Shown here piece by piece: positions 18,955-52,088 of a stretch of DNA of 64,000 nucleotides (positions are counted from its first letter, which is position 1; each line of letters opens with the position of its first letter). This DNA comes from an uncultured Desulfobulbaceae bacterium (GTDB lineage Bacteria; Desulfobacterota; Desulfobulbia; Desulfobulbales; BM004), in contig CALZHP010000003.1 of NCBI GenBank assembly GCA_945787325.1, forward strand, positions 6,070 to 70,069, in the 5' to 3' direction. The translations under genes were made by a program, and so were the position numbers. The notes below the pieces were generated by a model, which was not told where the DNA came from, did not search any database, and worked only from the letters and a program-made list of their open reading frames with translations.

Positions 18955-19045
18955 AGTAACCCTCAGTATTTCTCGGAATTATTATATTTAGTAGTCCGGT
19001 TGTCTTTGATTGAAATTATGAAGGAACTGGTTGCCAGTTTTATTC

Positions 19046-19312
19046 TTATTGGATGGTAGCGATACTATCGAATATGCCGTTTGTAAAAATAATTAGGGTA
19101 TTCATAATCCAGGGTGCAAAGAAGAGCAGGGCAACAAGAACTGCTACTATTTTTGGTACAAATGTCATAGTCTGTTCATTAATCTGGGTCGCGGCCTGAA
19201 ATATGCTGACAATAAGACCCACAATCATACCCGAAAGAAGCATTGGGGCAGCCACCATGAGAACGGTCTGAACCGCTTTGCGTCCTATCTCGATTACTAA
19301 TTCAGGAGTCAT
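19046..19312 (-). CDS. fliQ: Flagellar export apparatus protein FliQ
   Basis: MTPELVIEIGRKAVQTVLMVAAPMLL... is the typical FliQ start. The start is set at 19312; the longer track ORF overlaps fliP. Confidence 0.9.
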   Translation of the reverse strand: MTPELVIEIGRKAVQTVLMVAAPMLLSGMIVGLIVSIFQAATQINEQTMTFVPKIVAVLVALLFFAPWIMNTLIIFTNGIFDSIATIQ

Positions 19313-19322
19313 TGATTTTCCC

Positions 19323-21868: not shown

Positions 21869-22405
21869 TTACTGGATGACGAAGTTTGTAAAGTAAATAT
21901 GTTTCAGCGTCCCTTTATGGAGCAGGCTGTTGATTTTTCCAGCTAACTCTGCACGTAGCTGCATTTTCCCCTGCAGGTCTCGTAATTCATCAAATGTCTT
22001 GTTGCTAATCAGGAGTAGAGTTGCGTCCCGTATTTGAGGCATTCGGGCCTCCACCTCTTCCTGTGATTCTTCAGAATTAACTTCAAGGGTGATTGCCGCT
22101 TTAAGGAAACGGGGGTCACCGCTGGTGAGGATATTCACAATGAAATTGTCGATTTTGACCATTGGGCCAATTTCAGAGTCAGAAACAATTTCAATATCTT
22201 CTTCCTGCTTTTTGGAAGTTTTTTCTTTTTCCTCATTTTGGTCATCAGCGGATATTGTAGCAATGGCCGACTTTGTTCCCATAATGTAGGCTCCGGCACC
22301 TATTCCTGCTATCAATAAAAGCGCGACAACTGCTCCGATTATAATTTTCAGTTTGTTGCTTTTGGGGGGGCTTTCCTGTTGTTCTTCCTGTTTCTTTTCA
22401 GCCAT
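21869..22405 (-). CDS. fliL: Flagellar basal-body-associated protein FliL
   Basis: A single N-terminal TM helix and the C-terminal ...FLKAAITLEV...RDATLLLISNKTFDELRDLQGKMQLRAEL... Confidence 0.85.
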   Translation of the reverse strand: MAEKKQEEQQESPPKSNKLKIIIGAVVALLLIAGIGAGAYIMGTKSAIATISADDQNEEKEKTSKKQEEDIEIVSDSEIGPMVKIDNFIVNILTSGDPRFLKAAITLEVNSEESQEEVEARMPQIRDATLLLISNKTFDELRDLQGKMQLRAELAGKINSLLHKGTLKHIYFTNFVIQ

Positions 22406-22423
22406 TATTCTCTCCGTTTCTAC

Positions 22424-23182
22424 TTAAAAAGGAAGTTGATCACGTGCATCGATGAGATATGGAAGCTCCTCAGAGTATCCTCCGATGCTTTCAAGTATAA
22501 AATCTACTCTTCTGTTTAATGCCCTGTTAACTTGTGAATCGTTAGGAGCGACAGGACGTTGAGAGCCAAACGCAGTGGCGGACATTCGATCTACTGGATA
22601 AAGTTTTTCATGCGCAAAGAATTTTAGAACAGAAATTGACCGCATCATCGATAAATCCCAGTTACTTGTGTCCTTCTTTGTGAAAGGTGTTGAGTCGCTA
22701 TGTCCGGCAATCCTGAGTTGCAGGGGTAGCGGCCGTATCAGATCGGCCACTCTTTTCAATACATCGTGTGCTTCAGGTTTAACCTCATATTCACCGGGGC
22801 CAAACAGGATGGAATTGTTTACACGCAGCACAACGGCACCACGATCTTTAACAAGAGTAATGTCTTCATCAATTCGCAAGCGATTGAATTTCGTCATGAT
22901 GCGGTTGTAGACTCTCTGGAGCAGGTCATCTTCTACTGGTGGTATTTCTATGACAGCAGGAGGAGCAATTCTTCGCTGTTCAATGGCCCCTATTACTCCG
23001 AAAGCGTTTTTCAGGGAAACTATTGCCTGATTAAATTTAAGTTGGTCAAGGCTGGCCATGGAGAGGAGCAATACAAAAAAGGTCAGAAGGAGCGTTACGA
23101 GGTCACTGTATGTGACCATCCACTGAGGTGCGCCCGCCGGTTGTTTTTTCTGTTTTTTTTTGGAGCCTTTATTAGATGCCAT
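22424..23182 (-). CDS. motB: Stator protein MotB
   Basis: The TM helix carries the conserved Asp (WMVTYSDLVTLLLTFF). The C-terminal OmpA-like domain reads ...GHSDSTPF...NRRVDF. Confidence 0.88.
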   Translation of the reverse strand: MASNKGSKKKQKKQPAGAPQWMVTYSDLVTLLLTFFVLLLSMASLDQLKFNQAIVSLKNAFGVIGAIEQRRIAPPAVIEIPPVEDDLLQRVYNRIMTKFNRLRIDEDITLVKDRGAVVLRVNNSILFGPGEYEVKPEAHDVLKRVADLIRPLPLQLRIAGHSDSTPFTKKDTSNWDLSMMRSISVLKFFAHEKLYPVDRMSATAFGSQRPVAPNDSQVNRALNRRVDFILESIGGYSEELPYLIDARDQLPF

Positions 23183-23199
23183 ATTCAGAACTTTTGAAT

Positions 23200-23964
23200 C
23201 TAGTTAAAATTGCTTTCACGTAATTTCGGGGCGAGAAACGCGTGTAATTTCTGTTCCATTATACGCGGGTTCTCCCCAGCTAGTATGGATTCCATTCCCT
23301 CTGCGATAAGATTTTTTCTTAACACTTCAGTCTGGGAGCGGTGTTTCAGTTTGCCTGCTATCGGTAAGCAGACAACGTTGGCTATAACTGCACCGTAAAA
23401 CGTTGTCAGCAGCGCTATGGCCATAGCAGGGCCAATGGTAGATGGGTCCGACATTGTCTGCAGCATCTGTACGAGTCCGATCAACGTTCCGATCATGCCG
23501 AGCGCTGGAGCAAATGTTCCCATGGTGGTGAATATTTCAGCCCCTTTATCATGCCTTTCCTGGATGTATTCTATTTCTCTGAACAACATATCTTTAAGTG
23601 ACTCAGGTTCCTGGCCGTCTACAGCCATCTGCAGTCCTTTCTGAAAAAAACTGTCTTCAACTTCATTCATCATTGATTGAAGAGAAAGGATACCTTCCTT
23701 TCTGGCTTTGCTAGAAAATTTGATGAGCTGCTCAATTACTTCATTATGGGTAGTCTCTTTGTGATGAAAAGCTTTCTTTAGGATAGCAAAAGCTCCAAAA
23801 ATATCTTTGAATGGATAATTAACCAGGACAACGCCGGTAGTACCACCAAAGACAATGAGCAGGGAAGGGACGTTGACAAACAGCATGATTGAGCCGCCTG
23901 ACAACATGGCGGAAATCATAAGAGCAAATGCTGCAACAATTCCTAGAACCGTAGAAAGATCCAC
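23200..23964 (-). CDS. motA: Stator protein MotA
   Basis: Four-TM MotA/TolQ/ExbB layout, with ...TFAPALGMIGTLIGLVQML... and ...ALLTTFYGAVIAN... Confidence 0.9.
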   Translation of the reverse strand: MDLSTVLGIVAAFALMISAMLSGGSIMLFVNVPSLLIVFGGTTGVVLVNYPFKDIFGAFAILKKAFHHKETTHNEVIEQLIKFSSKARKEGILSLQSMMNEVEDSFFQKGLQMAVDGQEPESLKDMLFREIEYIQERHDKGAEIFTTMGTFAPALGMIGTLIGLVQMLQTMSDPSTIGPAMAIALLTTFYGAVIANVVCLPIAGKLKHRSQTEVLRKNLIAEGMESILAGENPRIMEQKLHAFLAPKLRESNFN

Positions 23965-28265: not shown

Positions 28266-28772
28266 TTATTTTGGTTTCAAAGTCGAAAAGGCCACGCTTA
28301 GATGTGCTGCTTTCTCTTTATCCATATTGTTCAGTATCTTGGCAGCAGATTTTTTTTTCATTCCAGAAAGTATTCCTGTTACAAGGTTATCTTCAAGATC
28401 CGAGAGTATTGTAGCGGCTTTGACCGAGTCCATTTTCTCGTACATCTTGCTGAGATCTCTCACTCTTTGTTCTTCTTCTGTATCTTTTTGCGACAGAAGA
28501 TTTTTCACTTCTACCCTCAGTGCTTTAAGCTCGTTTAACTTATTATCGACTTCATCCTGCAAACTCTTTAGCTCCAACTCCCTTTGATCAAGAAGTATAT
28601 TGCGTTCTTCGAGTTTGGCCTGTTGTTCTTTGAGAGAAACAATGATGCGCCTCTCTTCTACTGAGCCGATGTGACCATCTTTCTTAACAGTTTCACTGTT
28701 TGCCAAATGAGAGTGAAAAAATATTGCTAAAAGAAAGAACATAATTGGGATGGCAGTCTGTTTGATTTTCAT
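28266..28772 (-). CDS. Flagellar operon protein with MgtE-intracellular-N-like domain (B. subtilis YlxF position)
   Basis: It has a signal/TM helix, a coiled coil, and then ...MDSVKAATILSDLEDNLVTGILSGMKKKSAAKILNNMDKEKAAHL. It lies between fliJ and fliK, as ylxF does. Confidence 0.6.
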   Translation of the reverse strand: MKIKQTAIPIMFFLLAIFFHSHLANSETVKKDGHIGSVEERRIIVSLKEQQAKLEERNILLDQRELELKSLQDEVDNKLNELKALRVEVKNLLSQKDTEEEQRVRDLSKMYEKMDSVKAATILSDLEDNLVTGILSGMKKKSAAKILNNMDKEKAAHLSVAFSTLKPK

Positions 28773-29255: not shown

Positions 29256-30587
29256 TTATGTATCCCGTGATGATTTTCTGCGGTCGAGTAGTAGTTTATC
29301 CATGGCAGACATTGTTGTAGCAAGGTCTGCTTCTTCATCCATCTCCTGTCGCAGGAAACTGTTTACGGCATCTATTCGCGTAAGAGCGTAATCTATTTTT
29401 GGGTTACTGCCGGCAGAATAGGCACCAATATTGACAAGGTCTTCAGCCTCACGGTAAGTGGCAATTACCTCTCTGAGCTGACCGCTTATTTTATTATGTT
29501 CAGGTGACACGATATCGCGCATGACCCTGCTTGTTGAATTGAGGATGTCAATTGACGGGTAATGGTTTTTGGCAGCCAGGTCTCTGGAAAGAGCGATATG
29601 GCCATCTAGAATTGATCGTACGGCATCAGCAATTGGCTCGTTCATATCATCACCTTCTACCAGGACAGTATAGAGGCCAGTAATACTTCCGGCACCCTTA
29701 AAACTGCCAGCACGCTCGAGGAGTTTTGGCAGAGCTGCAAATACGGATGGCGTGTAGCCTTTTGTTGTTGGAGGCTCCCCGATTGCAAGACCGACTTCAC
29801 GCATGGCCATGGCAAAACGGGTGATGGAATCCATCATGAACAGGACTTCTTTGCCCTGTGAGCAGAAATATTCTGCGATGGTTGTTGCTACAAAAGCACC
29901 ACGCATTCGCAACAGGGGAGAGCGGTCTGAAGATGCAACCAGAACAACAGAGCGCTCCAAGCCCTCAGGTCCTAGATCTCTTTCGATAAACTCTCTTACC
30001 TCTCGGCCACGCTCACCAATCAGAGCTATGACATTTACATCAGCCCGAGTATGTTTCGCCATCATTCCAAGCAAAACACTTTTACCAACACCTGAGCCTG
30101 CCATGATTCCCATTCGTTGTCCGGAACCACTGGTAAGCAGTCCATTGATTGCCCGGACTCCGAGATCAAGGGGAGTACTAATTTTTTTCCGTTGCATGGG
30201 ACCAGGAGGAAGAGCATAGATAGGCATTTCTTTTTCCGGCAATATTGCGGGGCCGTCATCAATAGGATTTTCCATCGCATCAATGACTCTTCCTAACAGA
30301 TTATCCCCGACTCCGACAGTAGCACTGCTTTGGCATACTTTTATCAGGCTGCCCGGCCCAAGGCCGCGTAGTTCTCCAAGGGGCATTAACAAAGCGCGGT
30401 TTTCCCGAAAACCAACAACTTCAGCATGTACAACAGAACTGCCGTCAAGTGGGGTCAGTTCGCAAAGTGTACCGACAGATGCCTCAGGACAGTAACCTTC
30501 CACAACAAGGCCAACAATTTTGGTAACTTTACCGCGGACTCGGATCGTATTAAGACCCTTGATGGATTCAGCTAGCTGCTCCATCAT
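29256..30587 (-). CDS. fliI: Flagellum-specific ATPase FliI
   Basis: Walker A GSGVGKS, Walker B ...VLFMMDSITR, and an F1-beta-like layout. Confidence 0.96.
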   Translation of the reverse strand: MMEQLAESIKGLNTIRVRGKVTKIVGLVVEGYCPEASVGTLCELTPLDGSSVVHAEVVGFRENRALLMPLGELRGLGPGSLIKVCQSSATVGVGDNLLGRVIDAMENPIDDGPAILPEKEMPIYALPPGPMQRKKISTPLDLGVRAINGLLTSGSGQRMGIMAGSGVGKSVLLGMMAKHTRADVNVIALIGERGREVREFIERDLGPEGLERSVVLVASSDRSPLLRMRGAFVATTIAEYFCSQGKEVLFMMDSITRFAMAMREVGLAIGEPPTTKGYTPSVFAALPKLLERAGSFKGAGSITGLYTVLVEGDDMNEPIADAVRSILDGHIALSRDLAAKNHYPSIDILNSTSRVMRDIVSPEHNKISGQLREVIATYREAEDLVNIGAYSAGSNPKIDYALTRIDAVNSFLRQEMDEEADLATTMSAMDKLLLDRRKSSRDT

Positions 30588-31273
30588 TCATTTTCCATGG
30601 ATTTCTGCAGATGGTTGTATAACTTTTCCAGCTGAGACTCAATTGTGGCATCTACCTGGCCAAGAGAAGATTCTACCAGGCAGCCACCTTTTGCAACGCT
30701 GGGGTCTGGTTCAACAGTTATATTTTTCAAACCACTGATACTTGTCAAAAACAGGGGTTTCTTATCATTGACTGTTGCGAGATCATCAGGGTTAATCTTG
30801 ATGTGATACTCGTCGGTTTTAATTGCCGCCCGTAAGGCCTTGCTCAGAGTTTCAAGAATGATGTCATCATCCAAGGATGTTTCCTTATGGATAATCTGAC
30901 GGCTGATTGCCATAACAAGGCGCAACATGTCCTGGCTGCTGTTATTGATAATTGATTCACGCAATCCGCTAACTTCACTCAAAAGGTCTGCTAAAGCGTT
31001 GCTTGTGTCCCCAAATCGTGCTTCAGCCTCTTTGATGCCTGCCTGCTTTCCCTGTTCGAAGGCTTGTTTTTTTAAATCTTCCAGCGCCATTGTTGTAGTG
31101 CCCCCGACAGATGTTTCTGAATCGCTTGTATTTGGCGAAAACTCACCTGAAGAGGAGTTGTTGGAAGAATGGAATACTTTTTCAGCAAGTGTGTTTGGAC
31201 CGTTGAAGACGTTGGAAAGTAACCTCAGCGGTTTAAAGTCATTATTTCCTTTATAAACCTTAGACCAAGACAT
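30584..31273 (-). CDS. fliH: Flagellar export protein FliH
   Basis: The FliH/YscL-type C-terminal region reads ...LRLVMAISRQIIHKE...IKINPDDLATV...GGCLVESSLGQVDATIESQLEKL. Start taken at MSWSKV (31273); it overlaps fliI by 4 bp. Confidence 0.8.
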   Translation of the reverse strand: MSWSKVYKGNNDFKPLRLLSNVFNGPNTLAEKVFHSSNNSSSGEFSPNTSDSETSVGGTTTMALEDLKKQAFEQGKQAGIKEAEARFGDTSNALADLLSEVSGLRESIINNSSQDMLRLVMAISRQIIHKETSLDDDIILETLSKALRAAIKTDEYHIKINPDDLATVNDKKPLFLTSISGLKNITVEPDPSVAKGGCLVESSLGQVDATIESQLEKLYNHLQKSMENE

Positions 31274-32267
31274 CGCGTCCTCCTCTTCCTGGCAGGACAA
31301 GTGTCCCTTCATCTTCAAGTCTTAAGGCTATTTTTACAATCTCCTGCTGCACCGCTTCAACTTCTGAAAGACGGGTTGGCCCCATAACATCCAGGTCTTC
31401 CTGGATCATGTCTGCGGCACGTTGCGAGATATTGTTGAATATCTTGGTTTTTAATTCATCCGAGGCAGTTTTTAGTGCCAATGTTAAGGAATCGGTGTTG
31501 ACTTCTTTTAGAATCGTCTGCATCGAGGAGTTATCTACAGTAGTCAGATCCTCGAAGGTAAACATTTTCTTTCTAATTGCTTCTGCCATTTCCTGATCTG
31601 TTTCTTCCATCCTAATAAGGATGTTACGGTCAACGCCCTTATCCATGCGGCTCAGTATTTCAACAACTTTATCTATACCACCAACCTTCTGCTGTTCCTT
31701 ATTTACTACAACACCAATTTCACGCTGTAGAGCATCCTCGATCTGGTTGATGACTTCGGGTGATACTTTGTCGATCTTTGCAATCCTGTACATTACGTCG
31801 GCTTTCAGTTCCTCCGGAAGATGAGAAAGAATTCGGCCGGTATGTTCTGATTTTTGGGTAGAAAGAATAAGTGCTAATGTTTGTGGATGTTCGCTCTCGA
31901 GTAGGCTTGCAACCATCCTCGGCTGCATCATGGATATTGTTTCCAGAGAGCTTGATTCTGTACCGGAAATGACCTGGTCCATGAGCGCCTCAACTCGTTG
32001 TCGGTCCCCAGAAGCCGCAAGAGCTTTTCTAACAAATTCAGTGCCTTTCACAAATATTCCGTTGGAATCCTGCAGGTTTTTTGTGAAGGATGATAAGGCC
32101 TCATTTGCTACGTCAGCAGGAATATGGTCAATGGCCATCATGTTCCTGCTGATCATACGGACTTCACTGTCTGAAAGTTCCTCAAACACCTTTGCGGAGG
32201 CTTCTTCACCAAGACAAAGTAAGAATACAGCAGCTTTTTCCGGACCTGAGAGCTTAGAAAATTGCAT
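31260..32267 (-). CDS. fliG: Rotor/switch protein FliG
   Basis: ...LSGPEKAAVFLLCLGEEASAKVFEEL... and the C-terminal torque helix region ...ISQRAADMIQEDLDVMGPTRLSEVEAVQQEIV. Confidence 0.94.
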   Translation of the reverse strand: MQFSKLSGPEKAAVFLLCLGEEASAKVFEELSDSEVRMISRNMMAIDHIPADVANEALSSFTKNLQDSNGIFVKGTEFVRKALAASGDRQRVEALMDQVISGTESSSLETISMMQPRMVASLLESEHPQTLALILSTQKSEHTGRILSHLPEELKADVMYRIAKIDKVSPEVINQIEDALQREIGVVVNKEQQKVGGIDKVVEILSRMDKGVDRNILIRMEETDQEMAEAIRKKMFTFEDLTTVDNSSMQTILKEVNTDSLTLALKTASDELKTKIFNNISQRAADMIQEDLDVMGPTRLSEVEAVQQEIVKIALRLEDEGTLVLPGRGGRDVLV

Positions 32268-32281
32268 AGTTGCTGAATCCT

Positions 32282-33841
32282 TTATTCGTTATTGAGCCAG
32301 GATTTAATAACCTGAGTCGGAGGGGTTTCCGACCTGAGAATCTGGTCCCTGAGTAATAGAGTAGGATCTTTTGGCGCCAAGAGCTGCTCACTGGCATGAA
32401 GCTCGGCTTCAAGCTCTTGAACGGTTTGATATCCACTGCCGGTTGATCCGCCCTGCATGCTCCTGATTATGGGTTTTACCATCAGAATGTAGAGTAGGAT
32501 TCCAGCCAGTCCTAGAAGACCATATTTAATAAATGGCATGTATTCATAAATCTTATCTGATGGTGTTGGTTCGCTTATCGCCTGATCGAAAAATGAGTTT
32601 TCAAAAGGCATAGATACAACGGAGATCTGGTCACCCCGACTCATGTCAAGACCCAGTGCACTTGTGATCATGTCTTGAATTGCCTGGATTTCCTTTTTAT
32701 CTCGTGGAACGTGTGTAGGTTCTTTTCCTTCTGCACCAGGGACTACATTGTCAGCAATAAGGACTGCTACGGAAAGACTTTTCACTGTTCCGACAGGCGC
32801 TATTACCCTGTTGACAATTTTGCTGATTTCATAGTTTATCGTTTCGGAAGATCTGCTTGAAGTAGTGCCACCGGTTGATTGTGCGACATTATTTCCATTT
32901 AGGTTGGACTGTACACCAGGAATTCCACCACCACCGAAGCCTCCATCATCAGATTTTTCCTCAGTAACCTGTTCGCTTCGGGGAACGGAACCGTTTGGAT
33001 CAAACCGCTCTTCAGTCTTTTCTACTTGTGAAAAGTCAATCTGTGCGGTTACCTGTGCGAGTGAATTGCTGGCACCCAATGCTCTGTCGAGGAGGGACTG
33101 GGCCCTTTTTTCAAGCCGCTGTTCAATTGTCTGTTGGTAGTCCAGCATGCCTGCTGTCATTTGGCCGCTGGAATTATCACCAACTGCTTTTGAAAGCACT
33201 CTGCCGTTTGAGTCAACAATTGCGATATTCTCGACCTCCAGACCTTCAATGCTGCCAGCCACGAGATGGATAATACCCTGAATCTGGTTCTCTCTTAAGT
33301 TGCGGCCTGCCGCCAATTTTACAATAATGGATGCTGTAGCTTCTTTCTGTTGTTCTCTGAAGAGTCTTTTCTCAGGAATGGCCAATAGCACCCTGGCACC
33401 TTCGACAGGAGAAAGGGAAACTATTGTCCTGGATAATTCCCCCTGCAATGCTCTCTGATAATTGACTTTTTGCGCAAAATCAGTCATGCCAAAATTTTGT
33501 TTGTCAAAAATCTCAAAACCAACTGAGCCCCCCCGCGGCATTCCGGCCCCGGCAAGTTCAAGCCTCGTTTCATATACTTTATCTGCCGGAATCTGAATCG
33601 CTTTACCCCCGTCTTTGAGCTGATAAGGAATTTTTCGGTCTTTAAGCCAGGTCATTACCGACGAGGCATCTGTTTCCGAAAGATTTGCAAAAAGGAGCCT
33701 GTAATCAGCTACACGGGCCTGCATAATCATGATGACAAATATTGATAATGATAACAGTGTAACAACAATCAAGCTGATTTTACGGGATAAAGGCAAGCTG
33801 TTAACTGTATTTAGTAGTGAGTTGCCAGTTGCTTCAGCCAT
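32282..33841 (-). CDS. fliF: MS-ring protein FliF
   Basis: At 519 aa, it has an N-terminal TM helix and ...LFANLSETDASSVMTWLKDRKIPYQL... It also has the RBM domains and a C-terminal TM helix. Confidence 0.94.
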   Translation of the reverse strand: MAEATGNSLLNTVNSLPLSRKISLIVVTLLSLSIFVIMIMQARVADYRLLFANLSETDASSVMTWLKDRKIPYQLKDGGKAIQIPADKVYETRLELAGAGMPRGGSVGFEIFDKQNFGMTDFAQKVNYQRALQGELSRTIVSLSPVEGARVLLAIPEKRLFREQQKEATASIIVKLAAGRNLRENQIQGIIHLVAGSIEGLEVENIAIVDSNGRVLSKAVGDNSSGQMTAGMLDYQQTIEQRLEKRAQSLLDRALGASNSLAQVTAQIDFSQVEKTEERFDPNGSVPRSEQVTEEKSDDGGFGGGGIPGVQSNLNGNNVAQSTGGTTSSRSSETINYEISKIVNRVIAPVGTVKSLSVAVLIADNVVPGAEGKEPTHVPRDKKEIQAIQDMITSALGLDMSRGDQISVVSMPFENSFFDQAISEPTPSDKIYEYMPFIKYGLLGLAGILLYILMVKPIIRSMQGGSTGSGYQTVQELEAELHASEQLLAPKDPTLLLRDQILRSETPPTQVIKSWLNNE

Positions 33842-33918
33842 TGAAGAAAAACCTCCGGATTAGAGTGTATTAAGTTGTGTGACTAGTTTATGAAATCGTG
33901 TAAACGTCATAGTCCCGG

Positions 33919-34212
33919 TTACACACTCATTCTCATTATTTCTTTGTAAGCATCCACAATTTTATTACGCATCTGCACAAGTAGGCGCATGGAGATATCC
34001 GCTTTTTCCATAGCAATCATCACTTCATGAAGATTTTTTGATTCGCCTGTATTGAGCTTTTGGGCCGCATTGTCTGCTTTAACCTGCATTTTGTTTGTTT
34101 CATCGATAACGTTTTTCAGCGTCTCGGTAAAACCTTCCGCGGTCTTTTCTGTTTTACCGGCTTGTTGTCCGGCCATGGATTGCAGATGGTTAACAAGTGT
34201 AATATCTTTCAT
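33919..34212 (-). CDS. fliE: Hook-basal body complex protein FliE
   Basis: ...LHEVMIAMEKADISMRLLVQMRNKIVDAYKEIMRM is the FliE C-terminus. Confidence 0.85.
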   Translation of the reverse strand: MKDITLVNHLQSMAGQQAGKTEKTAEGFTETLKNVIDETNKMQVKADNAAQKLNTGESKNLHEVMIAMEKADISMRLLVQMRNKIVDAYKEIMRMSV

Positions 34213-34219
34213 GATTCAC

Positions 34220-34654
34220 CTACCTCCCTATTTCCAAGGCTTTTAGGGCCATTCTTTTGGCAGATTTAATAGTAGTTACATTAGCCTCATAAGCTCTTGT
34301 GGCAGCCATCAGGTCCGCCATTTCCTCCAGGAGATTGATGTTTGGCAGAGCAACATACCCTTTCTCATCAGCATCAGGGTGAGAAGGATCGTATATTGTC
34401 TTGGGTGGTGAATTGCTGGTAATGATTCTGGAAACTTCCACACCTTTTGCTGCACCTTTCATGCTTTGGTTCAGGTGTTTTTCAAAAGGCGGGTTATCAA
34501 CCGGCTTAAACACAACAGATTTTTTTCTGTAAGGTCCGCCATTAGGTGTACGGGTTGTTTCAATATTTGCCAGGTTAGAACTTATTGTGTTCAGCCTTAT
34601 CTGCTGGGCTTTTAGAGCTGATGAGCTTATTTTCAGTGTCTGGAAAATATCCAT
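34220..34654 (-). CDS. flgC: Proximal rod protein FlgC
   Basis: MDIFQTLKISSSALKAQQIRLNTISSNLANIETTRTPNGGPYRKK... and ...VALPNINLLEEMADLMAATRAYEANV. Confidence 0.93.
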   Translation of the reverse strand: MDIFQTLKISSSALKAQQIRLNTISSNLANIETTRTPNGGPYRKKSVVFKPVDNPPFEKHLNQSMKGAAKGVEVSRIITSNSPPKTIYDPSHPDADEKGYVALPNINLLEEMADLMAATRAYEANVTTIKSAKRMALKALEIGR

Positions 34655-34688
34655 AATTTACCTCCGATAAAATTTCTTAAGCATGCTC

Positions 34689-35105
34689 TTAGCGCCCATC
34701 CTGGGCAACATATTTCAAGAGTCCCAGTTTTTTTTTGAGCATCTGGGTTGTTGCTTCATAAAGTAATTGGTTTTCAGCAAGGGCAACCATTTCCTGGTCA
34801 ACACTCACTCCATTTCGATCACCAATACCGGTCTTGTCTGGAGTTCGTATTATTGTTCCCTGCACAGACTCTACCCCTCCACCTCCAATGTTAATGTGGG
34901 CAGGGTGTGTGGTTGTTGGTTTATTTTCTTTATTATTGACTGCACGTTGGAGTTTCTGCTCAAACTCCAGACGGGCAGGTGCATATCCGGGAGTGTCGGC
35001 GTTGGCAATGTTTGATGCAATAGTCTGCTGGTTCTGGAGTCTGAGGTCCAACACCTTCTGCAGCAGAGTCAGGGAGTTATCAAATAGATTGGCTTTTGGC
35101 ATCAT
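34689..35105 (-). CDS. flgB: Proximal rod protein FlgB
   Basis: ...LDLRLQNQQTIASNIANADTPGYAPARLEFE... and ...DQEMVALAENQLLYEATTQMLKKKL. Confidence 0.9.
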   Translation of the reverse strand: MMPKANLFDNSLTLLQKVLDLRLQNQQTIASNIANADTPGYAPARLEFEQKLQRAVNNKENKPTTTHPAHINIGGGGVESVQGTIIRTPDKTGIGDRNGVSVDQEMVALAENQLLYEATTQMLKKKLGLLKYVAQDGR

Positions 35106-35143
35106 CAGTACCTTTACATATTATATTCATTTACCCTGTTAAG

Positions 35144-37582
35144 TTATGGTACTTTCAGGGCAAGGGTTTCGACGGCCATTTTTTGCCAGAGAGTACTCTT
35201 AGCTTCATCGACAAGGCGTTGTAAAAGTTTAAGACCATCGTTGGATCTGTCAGTTGCAAAATAAATCTGAGCGTTTCGAAAAGTTGCCTGGTCAGAATAG
35301 TCATCCATCTTTTCGAGATGTTCGTAAAGTTTCTGCGCTTTTTTATTGTCTCCTTTACGGAAAAGTGCCTCCGCAAGCAGCATAATGTGTTCAGGTTTTG
35401 CTTCATCGAAACTGTTGCCGACAACTTTACTGAGATGTCTTTCTACTTCATCATACCTGGCAAGATCCCAGAATATTTGGCCGGCTATGAGATCAAGTTC
35501 GGTACTTTCAGGTCTGTCCTTCGAACTGAGAATTTTTGCAGCTTCTTCGAGTTGGCCTGTTTCTATTTTTCCTTTTATAGACAGCGAGAAGAGATCTATA
35601 CTGCTTGGGCCTTCTGGAAATTTGTTGAAATATAGTTCAGTATATTCTTCTACCAGTCTGTGATCACCCTTGGCATAAAGAGCCTCTACTAAAGGTAAAT
35701 ATATTTTTTCTTCATCAGAATTATCTTTGCTTACATCGAGCAGGTAAAGATATACTCTTGCGGCCCGGTTCCATAACCAGAGCCCTGCAAAGGCAAGTCC
35801 AAGGTCTGTGAGAAAGTTGCCGTTTATCCTGCCGCTAAGAAGCAGGTTTCTATTCTGTTCAGCAAGCACCAAGGCATTTATATAATCATTGTTGTCTGTT
35901 AATTTTTTTATGGCAACGGGCAGAATTTCTACTTGCAGTGCCTCTGCTTGGCTATGGAGTGTGCCGTTACTGTAGTCACGCAAGAAATTGTTTAATAGTT
36001 CAACACTTTTGACTTTCTCACCCTGGAGGTGAAGTGCAATTACCTGTTTAAGGGCACCTTCTTCGCGAAGTTCCCTGGAGGGTGCATAGGAAGCTATTTT
36101 CGCATAGTCAATAATGAGTTCAGGAGCATCTTCTCCCAGGAGGATGGCCAGATCACTTAATTTCATTCTGGCGCGATAAGATGCATCTGATTTTGGGAAA
36201 TCAGATATAATATTTTTAAATATATCTATAGCTTGATCTTTTTGCCCCACCTTCAGCCAGTTTACAGCTGCAGCATAAGTTGCAAGGCCTTTTTCGTGCT
36301 GTTTAGAAGCCTGTTTTGCAATTTTTTTATAACGTGTATACGCTTCACCGTACTCTCCCTGCCGGTGGAATAATTCGGCAAGATTGGCAAATGAATATGG
36401 GTGATATTTTAGAACGGTAGAACTTTCGCTTATCTCTTTATAAATTGCCGTAGCATCGTCGAATCTTCCGATGGCAAAACAGGTATCAGCTTGACGCATT
36501 TGTTTTAATATACCGGCCATACCACCGCCGGTGTAAGAATTGCGTGATAATATCTGCTGGGCCTTTTCATACTGGCTGTTTGTCAAAGCTATTTCAGCTT
36601 CTAGAATGTCATAATATGGTGAAAGAGGATCGTTGGTTGTGCTGTCTTGTTTAATCGACAGACGGTATTGAGCGCCATATGAATCACCCGAAGATGCCAG
36701 CGCAATTGATGTAAGATACGTGGCACATCTTCTCACATCCAATACAGGATTGGTCAAGAACAATTCTGTAAATAAAGAAAGCGCTTCACTTAACTCTCCT
36801 TTTCGTATAAGTACTTCTCCGTAGGTAAGCTGAAGATATACTTTTTCAGTGGCAACAGATGAATATTCGACAGCTTTTTGCAGCGTTGAACTGATATTGT
36901 CCCAATTTGTATTATTGGAATATTGACCGACAGATGAAAGGTCATTTTCACCCCAATTTTCAATAATTGTGGCATTGATATCATCCTTTACACTGGGTTT
37001 GAAAAGGGCAATAACAGGAAAAGGTGGAAGTGTATGCTTAAGTGAAACAGGTATGGTAACTGGAGTTTCGTACTTTTCTATAAAAGCTATCCAATTTCCT
37101 GTGTATTCAGAAGTTACAGCTCGCTGAAGAATTGGGGTTCCGGGAATTTTGGAAATACTCCGGGGAAGGTTGTTAGTAATGGCAGGACGCATTTTAGACG
37201 TTTTTTTGTCCCAAAGTATATCCAGAACAAGTTGATCTTCTGATTCATTTAAGGAACTTTCGACCTGCAGCGGTGGTCTGTGAAAGAAAAATGATAGTAC
37301 TGTTTCAGAATCCTTTTCACTCCATTCAGTTTTTATTATAGTACTATCCGATGAAAGGCCCTTAAAAGCATTATCAACAGAACTCATGTGTATAAACAGG
37401 TCTATACGTTGGCCCGATGTTTTTATCTGGTACTTTGGAAGGCCGCTAAACTGAAGAGTTATGCGTGAAGTTTCCTGCCCTTCCTTTTTTTTCACATGCG
37501 TTAACTTGGTTTTTTCCGCAGCAAAGGTGCCCGTTGCGAAAAAAAACGTTATGATAAGAAGACAGAATATTTTTCGAGTCAT
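35144..37582 (-). CDS. Secreted AMIN-like beta-domain plus long TPR-repeat protein, first gene of the flgB operon
   Basis: Signal peptide MTRKIFCLLIITFFFATGTFA|AE. The N-terminal region ...ETSRITLQFSGLPKYQIKTSGQRIDLFIHMSSV... resembles an AMIN domain. After that, about 550 aa carry repeated A/Y/L-patterned TPR-like helices (…GEYGEAYTRYKKIAKQ…, …GDNKKAQKLYEHL…). It is 38 bp from flgB on the same strand. The track ORF extends to 37636. Confidence 0.8.
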   Translation of the reverse strand: MTRKIFCLLIITFFFATGTFAAEKTKLTHVKKKEGQETSRITLQFSGLPKYQIKTSGQRIDLFIHMSSVDNAFKGLSSDSTIIKTEWSEKDSETVLSFFFHRPPLQVESSLNESEDQLVLDILWDKKTSKMRPAITNNLPRSISKIPGTPILQRAVTSEYTGNWIAFIEKYETPVTIPVSLKHTLPPFPVIALFKPSVKDDINATIIENWGENDLSSVGQYSNNTNWDNISSTLQKAVEYSSVATEKVYLQLTYGEVLIRKGELSEALSLFTELFLTNPVLDVRRCATYLTSIALASSGDSYGAQYRLSIKQDSTTNDPLSPYYDILEAEIALTNSQYEKAQQILSRNSYTGGGMAGILKQMRQADTCFAIGRFDDATAIYKEISESSTVLKYHPYSFANLAELFHRQGEYGEAYTRYKKIAKQASKQHEKGLATYAAAVNWLKVGQKDQAIDIFKNIISDFPKSDASYRARMKLSDLAILLGEDAPELIIDYAKIASYAPSRELREEGALKQVIALHLQGEKVKSVELLNNFLRDYSNGTLHSQAEALQVEILPVAIKKLTDNNDYINALVLAEQNRNLLLSGRINGNFLTDLGLAFAGLWLWNRAARVYLYLLDVSKDNSDEEKIYLPLVEALYAKGDHRLVEEYTELYFNKFPEGPSSIDLFSLSIKGKIETGQLEEAAKILSSKDRPESTELDLIAGQIFWDLARYDEVERHLSKVVGNSFDEAKPEHIMLLAEALFRKGDNKKAQKLYEHLEKMDDYSDQATFRNAQIYFATDRSNDGLKLLQRLVDEAKSTLWQKMAVETLALKVP

Positions 37583-38084
37583 AGAATTTCCCTTCAAAAA
37601 TTTGTTTCGACTGGAAAACAGCAAAATGTGTTCCATTCTGACCTGCTATTTTCTTTATTCTAATGATTACAGATATATAGGTTTTTTGCAGATTGAATCT
37701 GTGTATGGATTTGCTCGTTAGGTTATTAAAGGAGCTATGAAGGGTCATTTTTTTGACAATTAATTCGATGAACTTGAAACATTCACTTGGGCCAGGGAAA
37801 AGAGACAGAACGAGATTCCAGAAATACACAAAGCAGATTAATGAGTTGATTACTTCTCAATGGTCATATTTTATAAATGTTACTTTAATAATATCGGGGA
37901 GATATGTTCACGAATGTCGACTGAGTGATTGTTGCCTTGATGTCATAAATACGAAGCCGAAACTATTAATGTAATGTAATGAAATGAACTTAATGAAGAT
38001 GTTACTCATTAACGGCATAAAAATTGTATAAGTGCTCTTGTGGTGTAACAATTAGAATGTATAGTGTTGAGTGGATTTTTTCTG

Positions 38085-38150: not shown

Positions 38151-40721
38151 ATGAGCAAAGATATTTCTTCAGAAGACATTGAAATAATTCAAGACTTTAT
38201 CCAAGAAAGTCATGACATGCTTGATCAATTGGAACCAACGATTATTGAACTTGGTGAGAGTTGTCAAAGTGTGAACTGCTGGGAAATCCTTAAGTGTGAA
38301 AGTGATGACTGCCACCGACAAGGAAAAGAAATAGATATTCCCTGCTGGCTGCACACCGGTTATGTGGGAAACGGTCTTGGTATATGTACCCACGGCAGTT
38401 CTGAGGCCGAATGTCTGTCTTGCCAGGTCTTTGTAATGACAAACGGAGATACTGAAACAATGAACGCCATATTCCGTTTGTTTCATTCAATGAAAGGGAG
38501 TGCCGGGTTCCTTGAGTTCGACAATATTTCTCGCAGCGCGCATGCGGCTGAAAACCTGCTGGATTTGATCCGTTCCGGCAACATTCAAATGGTGCCAGAA
38601 CATGTTGATCTTCTCTGCAAAGCATGTGACTTTGCCAATGAAGCTCTCGACTACGTAGAGGAACATTTTAACGACGAAGGTATGGCTGAAAAAGCAGAAG
38701 AAATTACTTCCCTTCTTAGAGATGCTATTGAAGATGCTCAAAACAGGGCAAAATTTATTCAGGAAGATACTGTTCAACAAGGCAAGAAAAACGATACCCA
38801 TAGCTCTGATGAAAAAGCATCTGCTTCTGAAGAGTCTGAGCCAGATCAGCAGGATCTGATTGGTCCGGAAATGATAGAGACATTCGTGCTTGATGCTGAA
38901 GATTTACTCAGAAGGGTAGAGCTGAATCTTTTAAAATTAATTGAACAGCCGAGCGATGAGATCATTTTAGCAGATCTTTTCAGAGAGATGCACACTTTTA
39001 AAGGGAATTGCGGATTCCTAAACCTTGGAGACTTTGAGAGATTAAGCCACAAGGTAGAAAGTGTACTTGGGGAATATAAGGAAGGAGATGTCCTAACAGA
39101 TAGTGATTCCACTCAACTTCTCATCAATATTGTAGATACAATGCAATCTGGTGTTGCCGATTTTTCTTCTGATGGCGATGGTACAATAGATCAGTTGGAA
39201 ATGCATCTCAAGTCGTTGGACGACCTTCTTCAAAAAATAAGCAATGCCCCCCCTCCAATACCAGATGATGCACCACGCCTGGGTGAATTGCTCGTAGAAA
39301 AAGGAATTATTAATTTTGAAGATATCGAAGAGGCACTGGAAGAACAGCAGAAACCTCTTGGAGATATCTTGATTGATATGGGGAAGGTTACTCCCGAGCT
39401 GATAACAACTACTCTAAAAGAACAACATAAAATTATTTCGCAGGATGCAGATAAAAAAGGGAAACCGAAGCCAAGATCTTTACCTGTAAAACGCCAAGAC
39501 ATAAGAGTTGATCTTGAAAAGCTCGACAACCTAATAAATCTTATCGGCGAGATGGTTATCGCCGAAAACATGTTAGTTCACAACCCCGATCTGGAAGGAA
39601 TGGAGTTGGAGAACTTCAATAAGGCCGCCCAACAGATGGGTAAGCTTGTCCGTGAGCTGCAGGAGATGGCCATGATAATCAGGATGATTCCTGTGTCGGG
39701 TCTATTCAGGCGAATGATTCGTCTGGTTCACGATCTGTCTACAAAGTCTGGGAAAAAGGTAGATCTGCAGCTTGCAGGTGAAGAAACAGAGATAGATAAA
39801 ACTGTCATAGAAACAATCACGGATCCCCTTGTCCATTTGTTGCGTAATTCTTTGGACCACGGTCTAGAACCTCCGGAAGAAAGAAACAAGGCGGGAAAAC
39901 CTGAAATAGGTGTACTTATCTTGTCGGCAAGACATGAAGAAGGCGAGGTCTGGATTACCCTGGAAGATGACGGCAGGGGACTTAACCGTGAAAAGATTAT
40001 CGCAAAAGCAATAAAGAACGGATTATTAGAAGAAGAATCTCCAGATTTGAGCGACAAGGAGGTTTATAATCTTATTTTTCAGCCGGGATTTTCAACTGCT
40101 GAAGTGATAACAAATGTATCTGGCCGTGGTGTGGGGATGGATGTTGTAAAGCAGAATCTTAACAAAATAAGAGGTAAGGTTGAGGTTCAGAGTAAACCCG
40201 GACGCGGCACTAAAATAACCCTTCGTATTCCCCTTACCCTGGCTATTATCGACGGAATGCTCGTTCGCGTAGGGTTATCTAAGTGTATTCTTCCCATCCT
40301 GAATATCCGGGAGGCTTTTTGTCCAAAAAGCAGTTCGATAACAATTACCCCAGATGGTGAAGAGATTGTTCGTGTCCGGGAAAACTTTTTTCCTGTCATA
40401 AGACTTCATGAAATTCTAGGTAAAGAACCGGACTGTATGGAGCTTGAGAAAGGAATTCTGATTGTTCTTGAGTATCAGGACAATAGCGCCTGCCTGTTCG
40501 TGGATGAAATAATGGGGCAGCAGCAGACGGTTATTAAGGGGTTGTCAGATTATATTGGCAGCATTCCAGTTATTTCAGGTTGTACTATCCTCGGCAACGG
40601 GCAAGTCTGTCTCATTCTTGACACTGGTAACCTGGTTGAACTGAAAGAAGGAAGTGAGCATGCCGCTGCACTGCAGGAACTGGCCCAACAACAAAGTGCG
40701 GCCGAACAGGCTGCTAATTAA
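38151..40721 (+). CDS. cheA: Chemotaxis histidine kinase CheA, non-canonical: Hpt(with Cys-rich insert)-Hpt-MshEN-like-P3-P4-P5
   Basis: It carries two Hpt phospho-His boxes, FRLFHSMKGSAGF (H112) and FREMHTFKGNCGF (H281). The dimerisation segment is DIRVDLEKLDNLINLIGEMVI. The HATPase region has the N box HLLRNSLDHG, G1 DDGRG and G2 GRGVGMD. The C-terminus is CheW-like. Confidence 0.93.
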   Translation: MSKDISSEDIEIIQDFIQESHDMLDQLEPTIIELGESCQSVNCWEILKCESDDCHRQGKEIDIPCWLHTGYVGNGLGICTHGSSEAECLSCQVFVMTNGDTETMNAIFRLFHSMKGSAGFLEFDNISRSAHAAENLLDLIRSGNIQMVPEHVDLLCKACDFANEALDYVEEHFNDEGMAEKAEEITSLLRDAIEDAQNRAKFIQEDTVQQGKKNDTHSSDEKASASEESEPDQQDLIGPEMIETFVLDAEDLLRRVELNLLKLIEQPSDEIILADLFREMHTFKGNCGFLNLGDFERLSHKVESVLGEYKEGDVLTDSDSTQLLINIVDTMQSGVADFSSDGDGTIDQLEMHLKSLDDLLQKISNAPPPIPDDAPRLGELLVEKGIINFEDIEEALEEQQKPLGDILIDMGKVTPELITTTLKEQHKIISQDADKKGKPKPRSLPVKRQDIRVDLEKLDNLINLIGEMVIAENMLVHNPDLEGMELENFNKAAQQMGKLVRELQEMAMIIRMIPVSGLFRRMIRLVHDLSTKSGKKVDLQLAGEETEIDKTVIETITDPLVHLLRNSLDHGLEPPEERNKAGKPEIGVLILSARHEEGEVWITLEDDGRGLNREKIIAKAIKNGLLEEESPDLSDKEVYNLIFQPGFSTAEVITNVSGRGVGMDVVKQNLNKIRGKVEVQSKPGRGTKITLRIPLTLAIIDGMLVRVGLSKCILPILNIREAFCPKSSSITITPDGEEIVRVRENFFPVIRLHEILGKEPDCMELEKGILIVLEYQDNSACLFVDEIMGQQQTVIKGLSDYIGSIPVISGCTILGNGQVCLILDTGNLVELKEGSEHAAALQELAQQQSAAEQAAN

Positions 40722-50612: not shown

Positions 50613-52088
50613 TTACGAGTCCGGAATTATATTTTTCTTTTTAATTTTTTCCAGAAGAGTAGTCCTTTTCAGATTCAGTAATTTTGCAGCTTCCTTTTTA
50701 TTGCCTTTCGAAACCTCCAGTGCCTGAAGGATCAGCTTCCTTTCATAATTATCAACCAGGGTGTTGAAGTCTATTCCATTTTCATCCAGTTCTAATTCCT
50801 GATCATGCTGAATTTCAGATGATACAGGATCAGGTTCGGTAGTGATGTTATCAATATGTGCCGTGTATTTAGGAGGCAGGTCAGTCAGTGCGACTTTTTT
50901 CCCACCGTGCAGGATAGACATATGTTGTACCAGGTTTTCAAGTTCCCGCACATTGCCTCGCCAAGGATACTCCTGCATTTGTTCGATGGTTTCAGACTCA
51001 AATCCCTGTAAGGGCTTTTTTTTGTTGCGGTTAAAAATCTGTACGAACTTGTTAATCAGAATCGGAATATCAGGTTTACGTTCACGGAGAGGAGGGATGT
51101 TAATAGGAACGACACTCAGACGGTAGAATAAATCTTCTCGAAAATTTCCTGAAGCGACCTTATCCTCAAGGTCACAGTGAGTGGCGGCGATTATTCGAAC
51201 ATTGGCCGGAATGGGTTTAAGTCCTCCCACCGGTTCAAATTCCTTTTCCTGGAGCACTCTCAGCAGTTTGGCCTGCAGGGAAGGTTTCATATCACCAATT
51301 TCATCAAGAAAAAGTGTTCCCCCGTCAGCATACTGTATACGACCCATTTTTGACTTAGTTGCTCCTGTGAAAGCGCCTTTGACATACCCAAAAAGTTCAC
51401 TTTCAAGAAGCTCGTCAGGAATTGCCGTACAGTTAACAGGCACGAGGTTTTTTCCTTTCCGAGGGCTGTGGGCATGAATTGCCTGTGCTACCAGTTCTTT
51501 TCCAGTCCCGCTTTCGCCATGTATGAGGACTGTACTGATGTCATCATCTGCAACTTTACTAATGAGGTAGAATAGATTCTGCATTACAGAGGAGTCACCG
51601 ATAATTCCATGGAATCCCTCCGACTTTCTGCTCTTAACACTCGCCTTCTTCTCTTGAGACATGCTGGCCGAATAGTTTAGCCCACGGCTGACAGCAATGA
51701 CTGCTTCACCATAGTCATACGGAGAATTAATATAGAAAAACGTGCCGAGACGCAGCACCTCGGTGATTATCTCCCTGTTTCCGGAAGGTATAGCGGCAAT
51801 TGTAATAATTTCAGGGTTTGATGCATGTGTTTCTTTTAATAGAGCTATCCCTTCTCTTTTAGGAAGGAAAAGGTCTGTTAGAAGAAGAGAGATGTTCCCA
51901 TCGTTTAACAACTCCTGAGCATCTTCCGTTGACCCGGCTTCAAGTACTACGCATCCAATTTCTTTGCGCAGCATGACGGCAAGGCTTTCCCTTGCTTTAG
52001 TGTCTGGATCTACAAGAAGAATAGTGCAGTAGGCTTGATTGTTATTCTGATCTTTATTTTCAGTATTTTTTCTCATTGAAGGTGTCAT
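50613..52088 (-). CDS. Sigma-54-dependent response regulator (NtrC/FlrC/FleR-type enhancer-binding protein)
   Basis: REC (ILLVDPD..., LLLTDLFLP), AAA+ (GESGTGKE, GAFTGA, ...RVIAAT...) and a C-terminal Fis-type HTH (...GNKKEAAKLLNLKRTTLLEKIKK). No adjacent histidine kinase. Confidence 0.92.
   Translation of the reverse strand: MTPSMRKNTENKDQNNNQAYCTILLVDPDTKARESLAVMLRKEIGCVVLEAGSTEDAQELLNDGNISLLLTDLFLPKREGIALLKETHASNPEIITIAAIPSGNREIITEVLRLGTFFYINSPYDYGEAVIAVSRGLNYSASMSQEKKASVKSRKSEGFHGIIGDSSVMQNLFYLISKVADDDISTVLIHGESGTGKELVAQAIHAHSPRKGKNLVPVNCTAIPDELLESELFGYVKGAFTGATKSKMGRIQYADGGTLFLDEIGDMKPSLQAKLLRVLQEKEFEPVGGLKPIPANVRIIAATHCDLEDKVASGNFREDLFYRLSVVPINIPPLRERKPDIPILINKFVQIFNRNKKKPLQGFESETIEQMQEYPWRGNVRELENLVQHMSILHGGKKVALTDLPPKYTAHIDNITTEPDPVSSEIQHDQELELDENGIDFNTLVDNYERKLILQALEVSKGNKKEAAKLLNLKRTTLLEKIKKKNIIPDS

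Follow-up and report, generated by a model that had tools for sequence, protein, structure and literature searches.

The window analyzed here is a stretch of 64,000 nucleotides from contig CALZHP010000003.1 of an uncultured Desulfobulbaceae bacterium, and it carries flagellar and chemotaxis genes. The gene of primary interest is located directly upstream of flgB, on the same strand. It encodes a protein that is predicted to be secreted and to contain an AMIN-like β-sandwich followed by a long solenoid of tetratricopeptide repeats (TPRs). The open reading frame (ORF) is real, well beyond chance, with 199 homologous clusters at E ≤ 1e-30 and a mean pLDDT (predicted local distance difference test) of 90.7 for the structural model. 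Its architecture matches those of PflA and MotK part for part, and the operon encodes a candidate FlgY-like partner. The protein is therefore probably a periplasmic spoke or stator scaffold of the PflA/MotK class. The coordinates of the gene and its surroundings are given in Table 1.

Table 1. Features of the TPR protein gene and its surroundings in the window
Feature	Position	Strand	Basis or details
Gene of the PflA/MotK-like protein, including the stop codon	35144..37582	(-)	ORF, homologue alignment, promoter position, 199 clusters, AlphaFold2 model
Sec-type signal peptide, residues 1-22	37517..37582	(-)	Read from the sequence; helix 2-16 in the model
AMIN-like β-sandwich, residues 25-123, 9 strands	37214..37510	(-)	pLDDT >90, Foldseek
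Variable low-confidence linker, residues 124-145	37148..37213	(-)	pLDDT <50 at 127-145; indel-rich alignment
Conserved extended segment, residues 146-197	36992..37147	(-)	Conservation and model
TPR-like α-solenoid, residues 198-812	35147..36991	(-)	Pfam TPR families and model helices
Sigma-54-type promoter TGGAACACATTTTGCT, -24 TGGAAC / -12 TTGCT	37620..37635	(-)	Lies 38 nt before the start codon
Gap between the TPR gene and flgB	35106..35143	(-)	38 bp, flgB ATG at 35105
flgB, flgC, fliE, fliF, fliG, fliH, fliI	29256..35105	(-)	ORFs and tblastn synteny, 14 loci
FlgY/MotE/FlbB-like 168-aa protein, candidate E-ring subunit	28266..28772	(-)	Between fliJ and fliK
motA, motB (OmpA-like peptidoglycan-binding domain), fliL	21869..23964	(-)	Pfam
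NtrC-type sigma-54 activator (receiver + AAA+ + HTH_8)	50613..52088	(-)	Pfam; beside the che cluster

The ORF as listed covers 35144..37636 on the minus strand and has 830 residues. The ATG codon at 37582 (MTRKIFCLLIITFFFATGTFAAEK...; MTRKIFCLL...) encodes the Met residue where the alignments with all homologues begin. The alternative ATG at 37636 shares bases with the -24 element of a conserved promoter of the sigma-54 type. For both reasons ATG 37582 is the better start, as the original prediction had chosen, and the true product is almost certainly a precursor of 812 residues that gives a mature protein of about 790. The mature protein was previously thought to have about 810 residues; it is indeed predicted to be secreted, but 812 is the length of the precursor. 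The stop codon is TAA (35146-35144). An entry in the public collection (P0001, NCBI) is the 830-residue version, which begins at ATG 37636 and includes the segment 37583-37636 (minus strand). The conserved promoter almost certainly corrects this deposited start to that of the 812-residue protein.

The signal peptide has a positively charged n-region (MTRK), a hydrophobic core, and the sequence TFA/AE, without a lipobox, and the same n/h/c pattern is found in the homologues. Helix 2-16 is the only hydrophobic helix in the model, and there is no membrane segment beyond the cleavable signal peptide. The protein is thus predicted to reach the periplasm through the Sec pathway.

The AlphaFold2 model was built on an alignment of 69 family sequences and has a predicted TM-score (pTM) of 0.76. 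The conserved motifs (S/T)R(I/V)xLxF and SGQR(I/V)DL are located in the β-sandwich. The TPR-like solenoid contains about 34-36 helices over residues 198-810, corresponding to roughly 17 TPR-like hairpins. The Pfam families TPR_19, ANAPC3 and TPR_14 exceed their cut-offs for residues ~320-480 and 680-800, and TPR_12 and others are also matched. The TPR-like repeats that had been proposed for this region are therefore confirmed, both by these families and by the long solenoid in the model.

The extended segment between the linker and the solenoid belongs to the better conserved regions of the sequence, with the pattern RPAI...S-Y-x-G-x-W-x-x-F-F-x-x-Y-E-x-P...TLPPFP and an invariant Trp164. Its pLDDT values are 77-97 in the full-length model, compared to 55-85 when the protein is modelled without the TPR domain. 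The high confidence only in the presence of this domain suggests docking on the TPR surface. This aromatic segment probably docks on the TPR surface of its own chain or of a neighbouring subunit.

A Foldseek search through the Protein Data Bank (PDB) with the N-terminal model finds Escherichia coli AmiC (4bin), the structure that defined the AMIN fold of two four-stranded sheets, as the best match (E=2.8e-4, root-mean-square deviation (rmsd) 2.9 Å over 110 columns). The B2/AMIN domain of Neisseria PilQ (4av2, 4aqz) ranks next, with rmsd values of 2.6-3.6 Å. Small heat-shock/CS sandwiches are found at lower ranks, and the N-terminal domain of Campylobacter jejuni PflA (9leq_A) and Myxococcus PilQ (3jc8) are 21st and 29th, respectively. 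In each half, the sandwich has a sequence pattern (xRxxLxF ... QRIDL) that resembles in kind that of the AMIN domains of AmiC and PilQ. It is located in a TPR scaffold, however, and not in an amidase or a secretin.

There was no match to the Pfam AMIN hidden Markov model (HMM), PF11741, at E ≤ 10 with the whole protein or the N-terminus, and none at E ≤ 1 among 40 family members. A sequence profile of the N-terminal region finds two PilQ entries alone in the PDB, in the AMIN region, with a non-significant E of ~0.1. Because of the negative Pfam result, membership in the AMIN family is claimed at the fold level only. Judged by the model, the assignment as AMIN-like is right at the level of the fold and unprovable at the level of the sequence. 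The AMIN domain that had been proposed at 37202-37516 thus stands as a fold, covering the same stretch as residues 25-123, but not as a match to the Pfam HMM.

With the whole model, a search through 350,542 PDB chains gives 9hmf_K as the first match, with E=5.7e-16 and an alignment over the full length. Entry 9hmf is the 'Periplasmic scaffold of the Campylobacter jejuni flagellar motor'. We infer that chain K is C. jejuni PflA, as its 773 residues equal the segment 16-788 of PflA that was modelled (Drobnic 2025). The second match is Ctr9, a generic TPR protein (E=1.6e-11), so that 9hmf_K is ahead by ~4-5 orders of magnitude. Chain L of the same entry (PflB) has a rank of only 25. The original prediction had compared the protein with both PflA and PflB. 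PflA is apt, being the first match. PflB is the poorer analogue, considering its rank and the lack of a transmembrane segment beyond the signal in the present protein.

At the level of sequence profiles, the matches in NCBIfam show sub-threshold likeness only, to YbgF/CpoB, LapB, BamD and chaperones of type III secretion systems (T3SS). The best is tol_pal_ybgF (TIGR02795; E=5.8e-14, 52.7 bits compared to a cut-off of 90.1), and BamD (TIGR03302) has 23.3 bits compared to 81.4. There was no PflA-type match in NCBIfam. Searches of PDB sequences with profiles A1, A2 and the N-terminal A3 did not retrieve PflA, although the PflA entry 9leq is in the database; they found designed TPR and pentatricopeptide repeat proteins, LapB and YbgF only, plus marginal PilQ.

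The protein could on this basis be a general envelope TPR protein (YbgF/CpoB-, BamD- or LapB-like) that is a mere neighbour of the flagellar genes. The tol_pal_ybgF match and the name 'BamD family', wrongly given to two homologues by JGI, are in favour of this explanation. The scores, however, are far under the curated cut-offs, and the YbgF and BamD matches span residues 362-474 only (~110 residues). An AMIN-like domain and ~17 hairpins are foreign to the YbgF/BamD architecture. Moreover, the gene is fixed in the slot before flgB in all 14 of the long loci and has the sigma-54 promoter of the operon (see below). Overall, we consider this explanation extremely improbable. YbgF, BamD and LapB as the identity of the protein were rejected in view of the curated cut-offs and the flagellar gene context.

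The sigma-54-type motif is found more often in this DNA than expected. The pattern TGGMACN5TNGCW has three matches in the 64-kb window, compared to 0.35 expected, and none of 100 shuffled sequences reaches three. Of 15 homologous loci, 13 have it immediately before the orthologous gene. In 12 of these 13 there is no other match in the locus, and the remaining one (L006) has a second match within the gene. The other two loci have one-mismatch variants in the same place. The gaps before flgB (about 28-148 bp in the homologous loci) contain no match to this pattern. A terminator scan found no minus-strand terminator between the TPR gene and flgB in the window, and a scan for plus-strand terminators in the corresponding gaps of the homologous loci, covering the two longest, was negative.

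The presence of the sigma-54 motif before the TPR gene but not before flgB, together with the lack of a terminator in the gap, indicates that the TPR gene is very probably the promoter-proximal cistron of an early basal-body operon, as read from the sequence. The gene had been described as the first gene of a flgB-flgE basal-body operon, 38 bp upstream of flgB on the same strand. The measured distance is exactly 38 bp, the first position in the operon is supported, and the name 'flgB-flgE operon' is loosely correct, as the run of downstream genes extends beyond flgE.

Other promoter types were also considered. A sigma-28 promoter upstream of the gene was rejected in all the loci, with best scores of 8-9/12 at inconsistent positions, and the sigma-54 motif is preferred. 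A scan for sigma-70 promoters gave counts not above those of shuffled sequence. The NtrC-type activator (Table 1) is a candidate regulator of the sigma-54 promoter, and a candidate for a FlrC/FleR/FgrM-like master regulator of the sigma-54 flagellar promoters. A second good sigma-54-type motif, TGGCACGGGCGTTGCA (17202-17217, minus strand), is located inside the 3' end of flhB, ~95 nt before the start of flhA. There it may serve flhA-flhF-flhG-fliA as an internal promoter. The gap before flgB in the closest homologous locus (L001) is 148 bp long and has a GC-rich hairpin (CCCCGAAAGGGG, 12701-12724) without a coding-strand T-tract. Rather than as a terminator, this hairpin may serve in the stability or processing of the RNA.

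A word-index protein search finds six homologues, with 28-37% sequence identity, and the searches of this kind together give only seven true ones. The number is small because generic TPR proteins fill the candidate list, and an exhaustive search was therefore needed. This search, through 1.84 billion representatives, returned the 199 clusters, at least 150 of them strong. The family thus has ~200 clusters at 50% identity, and most members are full-length, with ~800 residues, and cover the profile end to end. The nearest relatives of the protein (37-43% identity) are from uncultured Desulfobulbia. The carriers include uncultured Desulfobulbia, Desulfuromonadales, 'Pelobacter' UBA metagenome-assembled genomes (MAGs), Trichloromonas, Geothermobacter, Geoalkalibacter and a Desulfobulbaceae MAG. 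Besides the wrong 'BamD family' mentioned above, the names given to homologues in their sources are 'hypothetical' and 'TPR repeat protein'.

Conservation of the gene upstream of flgB in related genomes, which had been put forward as a check, was observed. The order cheA<- ->TPR-flgB-flgC-fliE-fliF-fliG is present in all 14 sufficiently long loci of Desulfuromonadales and Desulfobulbia. The TPR protein diverges much faster than its neighbours, with identities of 28-37% compared to 44-77%. One of the homologous loci (L015, JBFWJC010000001.1, a 1.76-Mb contig) is labelled 'Pedobacter sp.' but carries a flagellar and che cluster of the Desulfuromonadales type. The 16-mer of its promoter agrees with those in three UBA MAGs of 'Pelobacter sp.'. 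Probably the label is an error for Pelobacter, or the contig was misbinned.

Periplasmic TPR proteins of flagellar motors recur together with a second protein, which forms the E-ring (FlgY in Campylobacter and Helicobacter, MotE in α-proteobacteria, FlbB in spirochaetes). The E-ring proteins have an MgtE_N-like head, and their genes are usually beside fliJ or fliK. The TPR partners (PflA, MotK, MotC, CC_2058 and FlcB) are a class that is not conserved at the sequence level.

A candidate for such an E-ring protein is encoded in the window. The 168-residue product of the gene after fliJ combines a signal or transmembrane segment with a charged stretch that was read as coiled-coil-like and with a C-terminus resembling MgtE_N. 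In Pfam, the MgtE_N match has E=1.9e-5 and 25.5 bits, just below the gathering cut-off of 25.9, and automatic annotation would consequently miss this gene. The sole match in NCBIfam is collar_FlbB (E=4.5e-5, 23 bits compared to a cut-off of 110), and a PDB sequence search with this protein was uninformative. The slot between fliJ and fliK agrees with the published position of the FlgY homologues. An MgtE_N-like gene, encoding 175 residues, also follows fliJ in the three homologous loci that reach far enough (L003-L005), the same arrangement as in the window.

The closest known counterpart is PflA (paralysed flagella protein A) of C. jejuni and Helicobacter pylori. PflA has an N-terminal β-sandwich ('PflA-AMIN'), a flexible loop and 16-17 TPRs (Drobnic 2025). 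It makes up radial spokes, which touch the E-ring at their inner end while the sandwich and the loop clamp the rim of PflB, the loop lying in a TPR groove of that protein. The assembly serves as a scaffold for MotB and FliL. The present protein likewise has a signal peptide, an AMIN-like sandwich, an unstructured linker and a TPR superhelix (16-17 repeats in PflA, about 17 hairpins here), in a total of ~790-800 residues, and the genome also has a FlgY-type protein. There are several differences, however. The two proteins have no detectable sequence similarity, and pflA is located outside the flgB operon in the Campylobacterota. PflA clamps PflB, and none is present among the scanned ORFs of the window. 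In addition, the linker region of the present protein has a conserved aromatic motif that is specific to the family.

MotK of the Fla2 system of Cereibacter sphaeroides (CC_2058 in Caulobacter) has, by modelling, an 8-strand AMIN-like domain and a TPR-like region, and the AMIN-like part was proposed to bind peptidoglycan (Velez-Gonzalez 2024). It binds MotE and MotB2, and its loss gives a Mot- phenotype, as it is needed for rotation and not for assembly (Velez-Gonzalez 2024). PflA has been equated with MotK (Tachiyama et al. 2025). As in MotK, whose sandwich has ~8 strands, the sandwich is AMIN-like by structure only and the remainder of the protein is TPR-like. Both proteins are also encoded with a FlgY-type protein (MotE in the case of MotK), and a PflB partner is absent for MotK and was not found here among the scanned ORFs of the window. 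On the other hand, MotK is a protein of 652 residues in which long proline-rich stretches are disordered and fewer helices are predicted with confidence. The motK gene is near motA/motE rather than before flgB, and there is no sequence similarity.

FlcA/FlcB of Borrelia burgdorferi and MotC of Sinorhizobium meliloti were compared by description only. They are periplasmic TPR-rich partners of FlbB/MotE, on which the assembly or function of the stator depends. MotC, however, is not reported to have an AMIN-like domain, and the spirochaete collar has several extra components.

Candidates for such proteins in the same phylum have been listed before. In a survey of 1,365 flagellated species (Feng et al. 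2025, bioRxiv), TPR proteins were tabulated as 'potential PflA', and Table S5 of that survey has FlgY together with a TPR-1 protein of ~700-880 residues in Desulfobulbus, Desulfocapsa, Desulfuromonas, Geoalkalibacter and Geobacter. Examples are Desulfobulbus propionicus (FlgY WP_015724908.1; TPR-1 WP_015724899.1, 809 residues), Desulfocapsa sulfexigens (WP_015405291.1; WP_015405282.1, 801 residues) and Desulfuromonas versatilis (WP_221250020.1; WP_221250029.1, 807 residues). The accession numbers in each of these pairs differ by nine, which is the distance in genes between the two in the window.

The TPR-1 proteins were identified in that study by TPR content and gene proximity only. They share with the present protein the phylum (Thermodesulfobacteriota), the length class and the nine-gene offset from FlgY. 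Matched by length and gene offset, not by sequence, they are almost certainly its orthologues. A comparison of the cluster accessions with Table S5 gave no exact match. Geoalkalibacter ferrihydriticus WP_040095735.1 was confirmed as a member of the family, and it is congeneric with the Geoalkalibacter entry of that table. A PflA-like TPR protein in the flagellar operon of Bdellovibrio, with a matching ring in tomograms, was also described (Chaban et al. 2018). The original prediction had stated that no such component is established for δ-proteobacterial motors. This is true experimentally, but Chaban et al. (2018), Velez-Gonzalez (2024) and Feng et al. (2025) describe or list candidates.

In the proposed mechanism, the sigma-54 promoter would direct transcription of the TPR gene as the first cistron, followed by flgB, flgC, fliE, fliF, fliG, fliH, fliI, fliJ, the flgY-like gene and onward, and the TPR protein would be exported by Sec. 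By analogy with PflA and Cereibacter MotK, the superhelix of ~17 hairpins would form radial spokes. These would start at an E-ring that the FlgY/MotE/FlbB-like protein builds round the MS-ring and would reach the stator ring, where contacts with MotB and FliL would hold the stators in place. The motA, motB and fliL genes of the window encode the stator and a known scaffold, the presumed clients of the spoke. The location in the motor, the binding partners, the binding of peptidoglycan and any effect on the stators are proposed by analogy with these systems.

By its AMIN-like sandwich, the spoke would be fixed to peptidoglycan at its outer end, in the manner of the MotK model, and not to a PflB rim. 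No TPR match, as expected for a second, PflB-like TPR protein, was found in 55 ORFs of the window searched with Pfam or NCBIfam (E cut-offs 0.01-0.0001), a scan that covered the window alone and left aside fliQ and a number of small or flanking ORFs. This makes a peptidoglycan anchor likelier than a PflB clamp. By analogy, the AMIN-like domain most likely binds peptidoglycan.

A more specific scheme is possible, although we regard it as doubtful. The Desulfobulbia and Desulfuromonadia may have a spoke without a PflB rim, in which one protein would combine an AMIN-like peptidoglycan anchor, a TPR radial spoke and a ring contact, with the S-Y-x-G-x-W-x-x-F-F motif bound to the TPR groove of its neighbour. 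This minimal module of E-ring and spoke, with a single sigma-54 promoter shared by fliF and the FlgY-like gene, would be near the ancestral stator scaffold that gave rise to the elaborate structures of the Campylobacterota and the spirochaetes.

The position as the first gene of an early rod/MS-ring operon may also be explained by a transient periplasmic assembly factor, whose AMIN-like domain would be on peptidoglycan at the nascent basal body while the TPR region recruits or chaperones other proteins. Its clients might be a lytic transglycosylase for rod penetration, P-ring/L-ring subunits or stator subunits, as first proposed for MotE with MotC. TPR proteins are common chaperones and adaptors, and the weak NCBIfam matches include T3SS chaperone classes and CpoB. 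Moreover, FlgJ in the window (7101-7415, minus strand) is a 104-residue rod-binding domain alone, without a muramidase, and an enzyme that opens peptidoglycan for rod penetration must therefore be encoded in, or recruited from, elsewhere. However, the size and the full domain order of the protein match those of PflA, which is a stoichiometric structural spoke, and a solenoid of ~17 hairpins is more scaffold-like than chaperone-like. Localization data also spoke against a chaperone-only view of the partner MotE. An assembly factor, with any of these clients, appears unlikely.

A role as a polar or positional landmark, which would mark the site of the flagellum or couple the basal body to the pole without any support of the stators, draws on the AMIN-like fold. 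AMIN domains target particular peptidoglycan, as for example AmiC, which is directed to the septal and new-pole wall. In addition, the FlhF/FlhG placement system is encoded in the cluster, which implies polar flagellation. Mutants of PflA and MotK, the flagellar proteins with an AMIN-like domain and TPRs, are nonetheless flagellated but paralysed, and their flagella are not mislocalized. The similarity of the whole model is moreover to a motor spoke. We consider a landmark function quite improbable.

Predicted export, the AMIN-like sandwich, the linker and TPR superhelix, a whole fold closest to PflA, and a flagellar locus with a FlgY-like gene are all found, as in the PflA/MotK class. Sequence homology to PflA or MotK was not found, nor was a PflB partner, which is Campylobacterota-specific, among the scanned ORFs of the window. 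Several points weigh against the assignment as a spoke or stator scaffold. The searches described above detected no homology in sequence to PflA, MotK or Pfam AMIN. The TM-score to 9hmf_K is low (0.38, with an rmsd of 46 Å), which is to be expected of a solenoid that is flexible and carries a tethered domain. The Foldseek rank among TPR proteins could come partly from the common length and domain order of the models, and convergence may contribute, since TPR solenoids and β-sandwiches arise easily. The FlgY-like assignment depends on sub-threshold scores. As the PflB partner was not found, the mechanism of Campylobacter cannot be transferred unchanged. Finally, no motor structure, mutant or interaction data for members of the Desulfobacterota were found in the literature searched.

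The flagellar genes of the window continue far beyond the first operon genes. The genes flgB to fliI were identified by homology, with Pfam labels taken from the homologous loci and not from the seven genes of the window. On the same strand, fliI is followed by fliJ, the 168-residue MgtE_N-like gene, fliK and flgD, and then by a flagellar biosynthesis gene of the TIGR02530 family (Pfam Flagellar_put), flgE, motA, motB, fliL, fliM, fliN, fliO and fliP. The next segment (18955-19322), where fliQ is expected, was outside the scan. It is followed by fliR, flhB, flhA, flhF, flhG and fliA, and finally by flgF, flgG, flgA, flgH, flgI, flgJ, flgM, flgN, flgK, flgL, fliW and flagellin.

Upstream of the TPR gene, a divergent che cluster encodes, according to Pfam, CheA, a PBP-like protein, a methyl-accepting chemotaxis protein (MCP), CheW, CheR, CheB, CheD, an HDOD protein, CheY and CheX. 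A cysteine module of ~50 residues is present in both CheA (residues 42-94; gene at 38151-40721, plus strand) and the MCP (residues 374-424; gene at 41912-44356, plus strand). It has seven Cys residues in the pattern C-x5-C-x4-C-x8/10-CW-x12/13-C-x8-C-x2-C, and neither copy matches Pfam. The local alignment score between the two copies is 85, compared to 28 ± 5 (maximum 44) for shuffled sequences. The module may be a metal- or redox-sensing insert in the kinase and the receptor. The cluster ends with a 379-residue protein (49447-50586, plus strand) whose CheX-like match is weak, partial and under the cut-off (E=5.5e-5). Further on, the MlaA lipoprotein of an mlaEFD-mlaA-mlaC cluster (54584-55771, plus strand) has a C-terminal SPOR septal peptidoglycan-binding domain, and looks like an unexpected fusion.

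The general idea of such scaffolds in these bacteria is already published. The original prediction is correct in its reading but no longer new, and the value of the present results is therefore confirmatory and descriptive, not surprising. They add the definition of a family of ~200 clusters, a confident model with fold matches to AMIN and PflA, and a strict first-cistron synteny. They also add the conserved sigma-54 promoter, the corrected start and the conserved motif after the linker.

If the assignment to the PflA/MotK class is true, the motors of relatives in the Desulfobulbia and Desulfuromonadia, organisms that matter in sediments and in extracellular electron transfer, would have their stators scaffolded by an E-ring and spokes, as in Campylobacter, Helicobacter, Cereibacter and the spirochaetes. 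A deeply conserved family fixed in the slot before flgB would support the view that such scaffolds are ancient and widespread, and are not specialities of the ε-proteobacteria. Its single TPR protein, its one promoter and the lack of a PflB match among the scanned ORFs would make the family a clean test case, in which the role of the AMIN-like domain, as a wall anchor or as a protein clamp, could be separated from the rest of the scaffold.

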